Shown: positions 55,299-57,146 of the stretch, one piece after another
Numbering within the stretch: position 1 is the first letter of the stretch
Layout of the letters: each line of letters begins with the position of its first letter
Origin: a phage
Direction: 5' to 3' (one strand)
DNA: 64,000 nucleotides
Sequence record: PZ445442.1
The notes under the pieces: model-generated
What the model saw: the letters and a program-made list of their open reading frames with translations, nothing else
Databases searched by the model: none
What the model was told of the DNA's origin: nothing
Translations under genes and position numbers: made by a program

Positions 55299-56012
55299 TT
55301 AAATATACTCTGTTACATCCTTGAAGCTCGAAGGCTTCATAATCTTACCTTTACTGTCAAGGAATATAATAACTTTATTACCGTTGTAGAACTCCTCTTT
55401 AGCAACGAAACCTTCGTAGCGACCACCAAAACGACGCTCAAGATCTTCAATCTCTAACTCTATGAGCAATTCAGTAGACATATCTGCACTGGCACCGTGA
55501 GAATATCGTAGATGGTTGATCCGTGCAAACTTGCTGTCATTAGATTTGAGAACCTTCCGCATCATCCCACACACATCGCCGCGAAGCTGGAACAGCAAAG
55601 CTGTTGACAACTCCGCTAAGCGGTAAGCTGACGCTCTTTGCTTGGATGTGTTTTTCGCAGCGATCAGTGTATCATAGAACTCACCGATCTTGAACTTAAG
55701 ACCTCGTGGATTATCAAACAGGTTTGACCACTTTTCGTGATTATCATTAACAAGATAAGCGGCATAACTTGTGACAACGTGAAGATCGCAGGCCTCTTTT
55801 AGCAGGTGATCTCCACCATCACCTTTCTCCAGCTCTTCCAAAACCTCATTGAACTCTTCCTCAATGAAGCTAAGCTGTAATTCGAATGGTGTGTATGATT
55901 TTTTCACTTTAGCTGCCACACGGTTCCAGTTTTCCACCCAGTTGGCAGACCAAAGGTAGTTTTCAGGCTGAGACAGTTTTTCCAGGTTGTCGATCAGTTT
56001 AGTATTCAGCAT
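55299..56012 (-). CDS. hypothetical protein, possibly MazG-like NTP pyrophosphohydrolase
   Basis: EEEFNEVLEELEKGD EExxE-type motif; weak. Confidence 0.35.
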   Translation of the reverse strand: MLNTKLIDNLEKLSQPENYLWSANWVENWNRVAAKVKKSYTPFELQLSFIEEEFNEVLEELEKGDGGDHLLKEACDLHVVTSYAAYLVNDNHEKWSNLFDNPRGLKFKIGEFYDTLIAAKNTSKQRASAYRLAELSTALLFQLRGDVCGMMRKVLKSNDSKFARINHLRYSHGASADMSTELLIELEIEDLERRFGGRYEGFVAKEEFYNGNKVIIFLDSKGKIMKPSSFKDVTEYI

Positions 56013-56025
56013 TAAAGGTCTCCTT

Positions 56026-56787
56026 TTAAAGTTCCATAAAGTTTTCTACAGTTTCAATAAATGCTTTATCAGAGAAAGCGTCAACAGCACCGTTAAACCA
56101 TACAGGGATCCCGCGATCCTCATATTGATAAAGGTCGCTACGTGAAATGCCACTCCCATCTGCACTCTGCGAGTCATACTTGTTTACAATCAGCAGTTTT
56201 GTGCCTTTACAAGTAGCAGGAAACAATTCCCAGTTAAAATTAATAACTGTGTTAGAACAACCTACTAGGATCACCATATCATTGCTTGTGAGAGATGTCA
56301 ACAGGTCATACATGTCTGTATACTTAGGAGCAACCTCACCGAAGAACACTACATTGGGCTTAACCCAGGTATACTTGCCTGTATCTACCTCCGTGTATCC
56401 GATATTTTTAATTACATCATTACCTTCAGCATCTTCGTAGGTGATTTCAGGCAAATACCCGTGGACATGTAAAATATCTTCATGTTTTACACCAGCACGC
56501 TCCAGCAAATCATCTACATTGGTGGTAAGGTTGATCACACGACCAGACCAGCGGGAATACCACTCAGCGATCCGAAGATGTGCAAGGTTAGGATCAACAC
56601 TGCCCAGAGCTACACGACGTGCATTGTAAAAGTCATGCACCTTATAGTAGTTCTTGGCAAAGGTGTGGATGTTGCACACCTCATCGATGCTGAAATTCTC
56701 CCACATTGCAGTGCTACCAGATCGGAAAGTGGGAATACCAGATTCAGCGCTCAAACCAGCACCGGAGATAATAATCAGTCGTCGCAT
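56026..56787 (-). CDS. Sir2-family NAD-binding protein (lacks Cys4 zinc ribbon)
   Basis: GAGLSAESGIPTFRS, HVHGYL, VVFFGE, ILVGCS match the Sir2 core; no Zn-ribbon cysteines. Confidence 0.7.
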   Translation of the reverse strand: MRRLIIISGAGLSAESGIPTFRSGSTAMWENFSIDEVCNIHTFAKNYYKVHDFYNARRVALGSVDPNLAHLRIAEWYSRWSGRVINLTTNVDDLLERAGVKHEDILHVHGYLPEITYEDAEGNDVIKNIGYTEVDTGKYTWVKPNVVFFGEVAPKYTDMYDLLTSLTSNDMVILVGCSNTVINFNWELFPATCKGTKLLIVNKYDSQSADGSGISRSDLYQYEDRGIPVWFNGAVDAFSDKAFIETVENFMEL

Positions 56788-56795
56788 AAGTGTCC

Positions 56796-57146
56796 TCAGT
56801 AGATGTTTTGTTTAATCTCTATTCCAAACTTCTTGAATGAGTCAGCAGCAAGCATAAATTTACGAGCTGCCGATGGATTAGAAGTATGCACGAAAATAAT
56901 CACGTTGTCAATAAGTGGTGGCTTTCCGAATACAAGTTTCTCCTCTAGCGCAGAGAAGCAGTCGTACCCTTCAAGCACTTCACCTAGATCATTGTCAAAA
57001 TACCACTCAGATACGCGTCTGTAGAGCTTTCTCTTATCATTAAGAAAATCCATAAACTCAGAAGAATTCTTTAGCCACAGAGCGTCTGGGAGTCCATAAT
57101 CTGACGGATCTCTAAAATCATCAAGCCACACAATCCACTTCTTCAT
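56796..57146 (-). CDS. hypothetical protein
   Basis: 116-aa ORF between RNA ligase and Sir2, 4-nt overlap with ligase. Confidence 0.45.
   Translation of the reverse strand: MKKWIVWLDDFRDPSDYGLPDALWLKNSSEFMDFLNDKRKLYRRVSEWYFDNDLGEVLEGYDCFSALEEKLVFGKPPLIDNVIIFVHTSNPSAARKFMLAADSFKKFGIEIKQNIY

Follow-up and report, generated by a model that had tools for sequence, protein, structure and literature searches.

What does a sirtuin do inside a phage cluster of RNA-repair genes? The question is raised by a 64,000-nucleotide (nt) stretch of phage DNA (sequence record PZ445442.1; 'the window' below means this whole stretch at its full length), which encodes on its minus strand, at 56026..56787, a Sir2-family (sirtuin) protein of 253 amino acids (aa), here called Sir2. 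We identified the window as Escherichia phage EmilHeitz (Bas49, Vequintavirus), at 100% identity across 2780 nt, and the same 2780-nt stretch occurs in 119 further records at 90-100% identity, where the gene is labelled Sir2 or sirtuin deacetylase. The gene is bas49_0213 in GenBank, with the product name 'sirtuin domain NAD-dependent deacetylase' (NAD, nicotinamide adenine dinucleotide), and over 100 nearly identical phage records already carry its annotation. We find that it is placed in a full RNA heal-and-seal island, beyond mere adjacency to an RNA ligase gene. The locus is best explained by phages of the rV5/PVP-SE1/GAP31 lineage having placed a sirtuin inside a tRNA/RNA break-repair island. 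By analogy with Tpt1, the protein could be an NAD-dependent remover of RNA 2'/3'-phosphates, a reading that we favour tentatively and hold to be short of probable.

Sir2 matches the Pfam family SIR2 (PF02146) over residues 9-181 (E=6.9e-28, 98.2 bits, cut-off 24) and PHROG 2162 (1.5e-108), and it carries the motifs GAGLSAESGIPTFR (residues 9-22), TTNVDD (88-93), HVHG (H109, G110), FFGE (148-151) and VGCS (175-178). Across 44 homologues, G9-A10-G11, S16/G17, F21-R22, N90/D92, H109 and F148-F149-G150-E151 are invariant or nearly so, and from these residues the NAD-binding and catalytic apparatus appears to be intact. An AlphaFold2 (AF2) model built from a 44-sequence alignment has a Rossmann fold at a predicted local distance difference test (pLDDT) score of 89.2, and Foldseek places it among sirtuins, which bears out the family and the motifs named in an earlier note made from the letters of this DNA. 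The segment F53-Y54-N-A-R57-R58, invariant in the 44 homologues, aligns with FYNARR of CobB and FYHYRR of SIRT5 and thus contains the YxxR pair of class III sirtuins. In SIRT5 and CobB this pair, Y102/R105 and Y92/R95, respectively, binds an anionic group, the acyl carboxylate. On the substrate side, the last Rossmann strand is followed by a loop of sequence G-C/S-S-N-x-V-I-x-F, where CobB has GTSxxVxP. Judged by its motifs and model, the gene product appears to be a class III-like sirtuin of the CobB/SIRT5 lineage, divergent yet with its catalytic apparatus intact.

The closest PDB sequences are E. coli CobB (1s5p, 3e-21), SIRT5 and Archaeoglobus Sir2-Af1, and the top 50 PDB matches found with Foldseek are all deacylase sirtuins, led by CobB (E 2e-18, with template-modelling (TM) scores of 0.74-0.83) and including SIRT5, SIRT2 and archaeal Sir2 homologues. 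The NCBIfam matches are likewise all to CobB-type deacylase models. These likenesses speak for the main rival to RNA-phosphate removal, namely that Sir2 works like CobB and SIRT5 as an ordinary NAD-dependent lysine deacylase (deacetylase or desuccinylase), which resets the acylation of host or phage proteins such as translation, RNA-repair or metabolic enzymes, and whose position in the cluster reflects co-regulation or shared ancestry in a block of early genes. The invariance of Y54/R57 and of the full catalytic set points the same way, as does the presence elsewhere in the window (3694-4233) of a Macro-domain protein, the usual processor of O-acyl-ADP-ribose. We nonetheless consider a deacylase somewhat unlikely. 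With a best NCBIfam score of 122.6 bits (cut-off 243) and lower ones otherwise, the protein falls far under the CobB equivalog cut-offs (NF040867, NF001753 and others); its substrate-side loop is unlike that of CobB; and the host already has CobB. A deacylase would also leave unexplained the repeated placement of the gene beside RNA-end phosphoesterases in separate lineages (PMC9503650). Sir2 thus shares with CobB and SIRT5 the Rossmann sirtuin fold, GAGxS, FR, N/D, the catalytic His, FGE and the YxxR pair, but differs in its GCSNxVIxF loop, its acidity, its sub-cut-off score, its encoding by a phage in an RNA-repair context and the loss of the zinc-ligand cysteines.

This last feature had been given weight in the earlier note, which took the lack of a Cys4 zinc module as a sign of an NADase or ADP-ribosyltransferase. 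The lack itself is confirmed: in canonical deacylase sirtuins a Cys4 ribbon (CxxC...CxxC) lies between HG and FGE, whereas Sir2 has three cysteines in all (38, 177 and 193), zero between H109 and F149, and residues 109-151 are Cys-free. The AF2 model adds that a confident beta-hairpin (110-118/124-128) still occupies the usual site of the zinc ribbon, suggesting that the ligands have gone while the space was kept, without a deletion. In 120 homologues of 46-93% identity, the segment from H109 to FGE (36-54 residues) contains no cysteine in 70, one in 48 and two in 2, and ligand loss therefore appears, in these alignments, to be clade-wide.

The interpretation of the loss did not survive comparison with cellular relatives. 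A scan of bacterial genomes found 80 of these at 35-48% identity, all retaining the FYxxRR motif and the (I/V)GY ribbon motif; 54 keep CxxC...CxxC (4-5 Cys) and 25 are Cys-free. The Cys-free relatives (42-48% identity) come from Marinobacterium (L096-L114, L142), Haliea (L107), Pseudochelatococcus (L121/L124/L137) and a Bacilli metagenome-assembled genome (MAG; L115), and the Marinobacterium copies stand in a conserved chromosomal context with 2-oxoacid:ferredoxin oxidoreductase-like genes, a TonB receptor and a transporter. Such chromosomal sirtuins may be the source or the recipients of the phage clade. Loss of the zinc ligands appears from the alignments to be a minor, recurrent event within one CobB-like subfamily and, because Cys-free relatives occur in housekeeping settings, it is no marker of NADase or ADP-ribosyltransferase function. 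The nearest cellular relatives are single chromosomal genes in metabolic contexts, some of them Cys-less, and a zinc loss compatible with housekeeping adds to the case for a deacylase. Among the 80 'cellular' loci only L167 (186-2103 of a 3.3-kb contig from a Campylobacterota MAG) has a cREC gene, of the family described below, as a neighbour, directly upstream of a Sir2 with 35% identity to the query; this contig is probably a phage fragment.

Neither does Sir2 resemble the sirtuin-fold NADases of immune systems (ThsA, DSR1/2, SIR2-HerA, SIR2-pAgo), with which it shares the Sir2 fold and the absence of canonical zinc cysteines. The PADLOC defence models gave zero matches to it at E<=0.01, and the comparison of the predicted structure with sirtuins and defence Sir2 proteins that the earlier note had proposed returned CobB at the top and no defence Sir2 in the top 50 fold matches; we rejected assignment to a defence-type Sir2/NADase family on these two results. 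Moreover, unlike those proteins, it is phage-encoded, closest to deacylase sirtuins and a single domain of 253 aa without a sensor or partner domain, its neighbours being the ligase, cREC and MazG genes.

A protein mono-ADP-ribosyltransferase of the SirTM or SIRT4/6 type, modifying a host target during takeover, is the least probable of the functions considered, and we regard it as quite improbable. Sirtuins can ADP-ribosylate proteins (reviewed in PMC9503650), and the loss of zinc ligands together with the altered loop indicates a changed substrate surface. Yet Sir2 has its closest relatives among deacylases, its gene belongs to an early cluster for nucleic-acid metabolism without virion or injection context, and the adjacent Macro-domain partner typical of SirTM operons is absent, as was also stated by Iyer et al. 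2022 (PMC9503650). A SirTM-like pair was rejected, as no Macro domain was found among nine neighbouring proteins. The sole Macro-domain protein of the window, 179 aa at 3694-4233 (plus strand; Pfam 27.4 bits, cut-off 22), is ~52 kb from Sir2 and has 35% identity to a Macro protein beside the ligase-kinase-NAMPT cluster in contig L178; it could process an ADP-ribose product of the sirtuin.

The earlier note had linked the gene to an RNA ligase. Three minus-strand genes lie within 55299-57146, encoding proteins of 116 aa, 253 aa (Sir2) and 237 aa. Directly upstream of the 116-aa open reading frame (ORF; 56796..57146), and overlapping it by 4 nt, is the gene for a 311-aa Rnl1-family ATP-dependent RNA ligase (57143..58078, minus strand; Pfam RNA_lig_T4_1 1e-14, PHROG 562 (T4 gp63/Rnl1) 1.8e-65). 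The 116-aa ORF is separated from Sir2 by 8 nt, and Sir2 from the 237-aa ORF (55299..56012) by 13 nt, an order and spacing in agreement with the note. The four genes form one tightly packed, translationally coupled unit. On the plus strand, divergent from the ligase gene and facing this unit, are genes for a 136-aa P-loop polynucleotide-kinase-like protein (58179..58589; Pfam AAA_33 1.8e-10 and Zeta_toxin, PHROG 2071 6e-58, PHROG 505 polynucleotide kinase 5.6e-10; annotated 'polynucleotide kinase') and a 184-aa calcineurin-like metallophosphoesterase (58597..59151; Pfam Metallophos_2 and Metallophos, PHROG 547 2e-51), a candidate healing enzyme for RNA 2',3'-cyclic or 3'-phosphate ends. All six genes, for sirtuin, RNA ligase, cREC, kinase, MazG and phosphoesterase, fall inside 55299-59151, and the RNA-repair setting is thus fuller than the note had proposed.

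T4 Pnkp and Rnl1 make up a heal-and-seal set that mends anticodon breaks in tRNA. The window cluster resembles this set in being phage-encoded and in having an Rnl1-family ligase, a 5'-kinase and a 3'-end phosphoesterase; it differs in that kinase and phosphatase are separate genes, in that the phosphatase is a metallophosphoesterase and not of the HAD type, and in the extra cREC, Sir2 and MazG genes. The family profile of the ligase matched only T4 Rnl1 in the PDB (2c5u, 1.5e-12), and the single sequence had no match there. Its AF2 model (pLDDT 91.6) placed fungal Trl1-LIG, T4 Rnl1 and archaeal Rnl3 in a tie in Foldseek (E ~1e-11, TM ~0.6). With sequence pointing to Rnl1 alone and folds tied, a junction 2'-phosphate is not implied, and the 'Trl1-type ligation' invoked in the earlier note is not supported. 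Motif I of the ligase is K96-x-N98-G99, with K-x-N-G invariant in 40 homologues, in place of the canonical K-x-D-G of T4 Rnl1.

The 116-aa ORF, previously described as unknown, encodes a cyclic-phosphate-processing receiver-like (cREC) protein (Pfam PF20274 9.1e-14, PHROG 1479 6e-33), in which D9/D10, D51/D53, H87-T88-S89-N90-P91 and K96 are conserved across 27 homologues. The cREC domain was defined in a 2021 jumbo-phage paper by the authors of Iyer et al. (PMC7824862), and its action as a metal-independent cyclic phosphodiesterase is a prediction of that work and of its successor (PMC7824862, PMC9503650). The 237-aa protein, the last of the unit, owes its label of MazG-like nucleotide pyrophosphohydrolase to PHROG 671 only (5.7e-22): to this extent the note's label stands, but Pfam gave no match at E<=0.01 and the PDB no sequence match. 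The gene is annotated as a nucleotide pyrophosphohydrolase in RefSeq relatives and is conserved along with the cluster among related phages.

This arrangement, and the idea that the sirtuin acts on RNA phosphates, have been in print for the rV5-like group since 2022. Iyer, Burroughs, Anantharaman & Aravind (Viruses 14:1977; PMC9503650) described sirtuin-centred RNA-repair neighbourhoods in phages and predicted a KptA-like role: the sirtuin, like KptA, would strip 2'-phosphates, and its neighbours would open the cyclic phosphate, or else ADP-ribose cyclic phosphate would be their substrate. Their type 2, with Escherichia phage V5 and Proteus phage Mydo as prototypes, matches the window locus, which shares with it the Vequintavirus background, the sirtuin, T4-like RNA ligase, cREC, nucleotide kinase, MazG and calcineurin-like phosphoesterase genes and the proposed KptA-like role. 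We find no essential difference, the window being another isolate of the described arrangement. In their type 3, seen in phage SP15, the sirtuin is coupled to a Swiss-army-knife HAD phosphatase (PMC9503650). The analogy with Tpt1/KptA drawn in the earlier note from the letters thus coincides with this prediction for the same neighbourhood, and we count it in favour of RNA-phosphate removal that comparative genomics had reached the same model independently.

Considered as an analogy, the published model makes chemical sense. A two-step logic is common to sirtuins and Tpt1: a substrate oxygen attacks C1'' of NAD+, and the ribose O2'' attacks next (PMC11417386). The Tpt1/KptA family, however, has an ADP-ribosyltransferase-type (ART) fold, which is unrelated to the Rossmann fold of Sir2, so that only an analogous mechanism, and never membership, can be claimed. 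What the two have in common is the use of NAD+ and the two-step logic, to which Sir2 adds a genomic position beside genes for an RNA ligase, a kinase and a cyclic-phosphodiesterase-like protein; its role is predicted only, and its partner ligase is Rnl1-like by sequence. Since some Tpt1 enzymes remove terminal 2'/3'-phosphates (PMC6573784), NAD-dependent healing before ligation would not need a Trl1-type junction.

Refining the prediction of Iyer et al. 2022, we propose that repair might proceed as follows. Host metal-independent ribonucleases would cut tRNA, leaving 2',3'-cyclic phosphate and 5'-OH ends; the kinase would phosphorylate the 5' end, and cREC and/or the metallophosphoesterase would open the cyclic phosphate. 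With NAD+, the sirtuin would then ADP-ribosylate an oxygen of the leftover 2'-phosphate (or 3'-phosphate), after which His109 would promote attack of the ribose O2'' on phosphorus. The Rnl1-type ligase would seal the break, and the ADP-ribose by-product would be degraded by cREC, the phosphoesterase and MazG. By analogy, the Y54/R57 pair could bind the phosphate, and we count the altered substrate loop for this model. Each chemical step, the substrate and the order of events are inferred, whereas the fold, the motifs, the gene order and the conservation of the neighbourhood in several phage lineages are observed here. The bolder claim that the sirtuin acts directly on damaged RNA and not on proteins, as a non-ART 2'/3'-phosphotransferase or, more speculatively, as a tRNA-linked deacylase (with, for example, the N-acetyl-aminoacyl-tRNA made by GNAT toxins as substrate), is possible but doubtful.

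We surveyed 76 viral contigs that carry a sirtuin, over 10 kb on each side, and found an RNA ligase near Sir2 in only 12, in three arrangements. The first is that of the window (ligase, cREC, Sir2, MazG-like); the second, ligase-cREC-kinase-Sir2-DNA ligase, is that of PVP-SE1/Mydo-like phages (~145 kb; L023-L031, L059, L081-L085); and the third, ligase-kinase-Sir2-DNA ligase, is that of GAP31-like phages, with ligase-kinase-Sir2 in L044, L046, L053 and L176. The linkage outlasts changes of gene order at only 44-57% Sir2 identity. It is at the same time facultative and lineage-limited, and a general association of Sir2 with the ligase is not supported. Across the database, 1012 phage records carry the sirtuin, 289 of them from Salmonella phages, and 814 carry the ligase family, with only 14 from Salmonella, 177 from Pseudomonas and 127 from Streptomyces phages; these differing host spreads indicate that most carriers of one gene are without the other.

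The more constant neighbour is a different one. In T5-like phages, a HAD_SAK_2 'Swiss-army-knife RNA repair' phosphatase gene follows Sir2 by 0.1-1.3 kb (28 loci). Because a phosphoesterase thus follows Sir2 in the unrelated T5 lineage as well, what recurs beside Sir2 from lineage to lineage is a phosphoesterase (cREC, HAD_SAK or metallophosphoesterase) and not the ligase, which we infer to fit a phosphorylated ADP-ribose product better than O-acyl-ADP-ribose. The T5-like phosphatase belongs to a trio (9142-10481 of L078, T5.105-T5.107; 28-31 other loci) composed of HAD_SAK_2 and two paralogues with two DUF7415 domains each. In phi92-like loci and in three contigs with homologues of the ligase (L176-L178), the metallophosphoesterase gene directly precedes the ligase gene; in L176-L178 the kinase gene adjoins the ligase gene, completing a shared metallophosphoesterase-ligase-kinase core. 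The slot of Sir2 beside this core holds Sir2 in L176, an HD-like 143-aa protein in L177 and low-complexity proteins in L178, with KptA in none of the three.

Several loci depart from these patterns. L086 and L090, both phi92-like, have cREC, metallophosphoesterase, DNA ligase and MazG genes together and, by hidden Markov models (HMMs) of the cluster genes, no RNA ligase or kinase, which suggests that the sealing enzyme was lost or replaced while cREC was kept. Distant cREC loci (L091-L094, 29-32% identity) had no cluster HMM match nearby except one metallophosphoesterase. The jumbo-phage Sir2 loci L061, L065, L070 and L076 lacked the 2H/Nudix-cREC/PIN context reported for Serratia phage BF, a phage outside our sample. 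About two dozen unannotated 'Campylobacter phage' records (among them H15-H17, H21, H24, H58, H61 and H82) match E. coli Vequintavirus or phi92-like phages at 98-100% identity over the locus; they probably reflect mislabelling or contaminant assemblies.

NAD-salvage genes stand beside the metallophosphoesterase-ligase-kinase core in L176-L178, with or without Sir2: NAMPT and phosphoribosyl pyrophosphate (PRPP) synthetase in L176 (781-3593), a PnuC nicotinamide mononucleotide (NMN) transporter and a NadR-like AAA_28 gene in L177 (548-2427), and PRPP synthetase, NAMPT, Macro and Metallophos genes in L178 (7973-12489). NAMPT and PRPP synthetase genes also lie less than 10 kb from Sir2 in 9-11 of 77 loci, and in the jumbo-phage locus L065 Sir2 is flanked by a nucleoside 2-deoxyribosyltransferase-like gene and by DUF4326, a domain discussed as linked to NAD/ADP-ribose (PMC7824862). 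Such company could mean that Sir2 acts on free NAD+ or NAD-derived small molecules in a counter-defence or NAD-economy island, converting NAD+, NMN or ADP-ribose-type signals or carrying out a CobB/CobT-like phosphoribosyl transfer, with phosphoesterases and MazG processing the products; the tRNA array of the window, together with the repair genes, also suggests a region that gathers counter-defence functions. We consider this improbable. The salvage genes accompany Sir2-less clusters (L177, L178) too, so the link is not specific to Sir2, and there are zero such genes in the window. The protein has no likeness to NADase-type defence Sir2 in PADLOC and no sensor or partner domain, and a phage-borne NADase would harm NAD-dependent phage functions, T5 with its orthologue using an NAD-dependent DNA ligase.

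Several observations speak against removal of RNA phosphates by Sir2. In both sequence and fold it comes closest to genuine protein deacylases, and its cellular homologues (35-48% identity) lie in housekeeping contexts without RNA-repair genes. T5 has an orthologue, T5.102, with 57% identity to Sir2; the cluster HMMs, run against all six frames of the unique T5 genome, found no RNA ligase, cREC, kinase or MazG, and the T5 annotation lists no RNA ligase. In phi92-like phages cREC, metallophosphoesterase, ligase, kinase, DNA ligase and MazG are found together with Sir2 ~32 kb away, and Sir2 is absent from the ligase clusters of L177 and L178. This distribution, with repair clusters without Sir2 and Sir2 without a ligase, also counts for the protein deacylase. 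The linkage that does exist is largely among related phages, and is in part synteny by descent. Kinase, metallophosphoesterase and Rnl1-type ligase would by analogy already be a complete set, in which a sirtuin may be redundant, and E. coli has a KptA of its own (Spinelli 1998, cited in PMC6573784). The clade is acidic, with an isoelectric point (pI) of 4.6-6.05 and a net charge of -6 to -20 in 119 homologues, both used as a crude proxy for surface electrostatics; this is unusual for an RNA-binding enzyme. Finally, literature searches turned up no experimental work on phage sirtuins and no test of the RNA-phosphate idea. On balance the earlier interpretation as a whole is partly supported.

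The repair genes are set in a wider block. A 427-aa ATP-dependent DNA ligase (Pfam DNA_ligase_A_M and OB_2) is encoded at 53389..54672 on the minus strand, and a DNA ligase stands beside the cluster in L023-L031, L044-L053, L081-L090, L176 and L177; this co-conservation shows that the region is also a syntenic nucleic-acid-metabolism block. Directly after the stop codon of the MazG-like gene is a terminator-like GC-rich hairpin (55275..55292, minus strand; 7-bp stem with 6 GC pairs), seen on both strands and with a weak T tail, a consensus-type match only, which is probably the 3' end of the four-gene unit. An array of seven tRNA genes occupies 62086-62897 on the plus strand, about 3 kb downstream of the genes for the kinase and the phosphoesterase. 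One tRNA-like gene of the array (62555-62653, 97-99 nt) was given a 4-base anticodon by ARAGORN and reached only 35.5 bits with the Rfam tRNA model; GenBank has it as tRNA-Lys, and visual inspection shows a UUU anticodon loop and an extra arm of ~25 nt. tRNA-Lys is a classical target of anticodon nucleases.

To the neighbourhood described by Iyer et al. 2022 our analysis adds that the Cys-less state is clade-wide and common to some chromosomal homologues, and that the link of Sir2 to the cluster is facultative, as seen in T5, phi92-like phages, L177 and L178. Any account of this sirtuin now has boundary conditions: the loss of zinc ligands is non-diagnostic, the anion-binding pair of class III is kept, the clade is acidic and the linkage to the ligase is facultative, with T5.102 as a ligase-free orthologue and natural control. 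If the prediction is true, nucleic-acid repair by a chemistry convergent with that of Tpt1 would be added to the activities of sirtuins; in its non-ART version this would be the first NAD-dependent RNA 2'/3'-phosphotransferase outside the ART fold, a Tpt1 analogue on a sirtuin fold. Direct action on RNA would give a CobB-like sirtuin substrates of a new class, and phage counter-defence against tRNA-targeting immunity a new step that consumes NAD. Phage tRNA repair would then be NAD+-dependent, and anticodon nucleases and NAD depletion, two major arms of bacterial immunity, would be tied to one phage locus.

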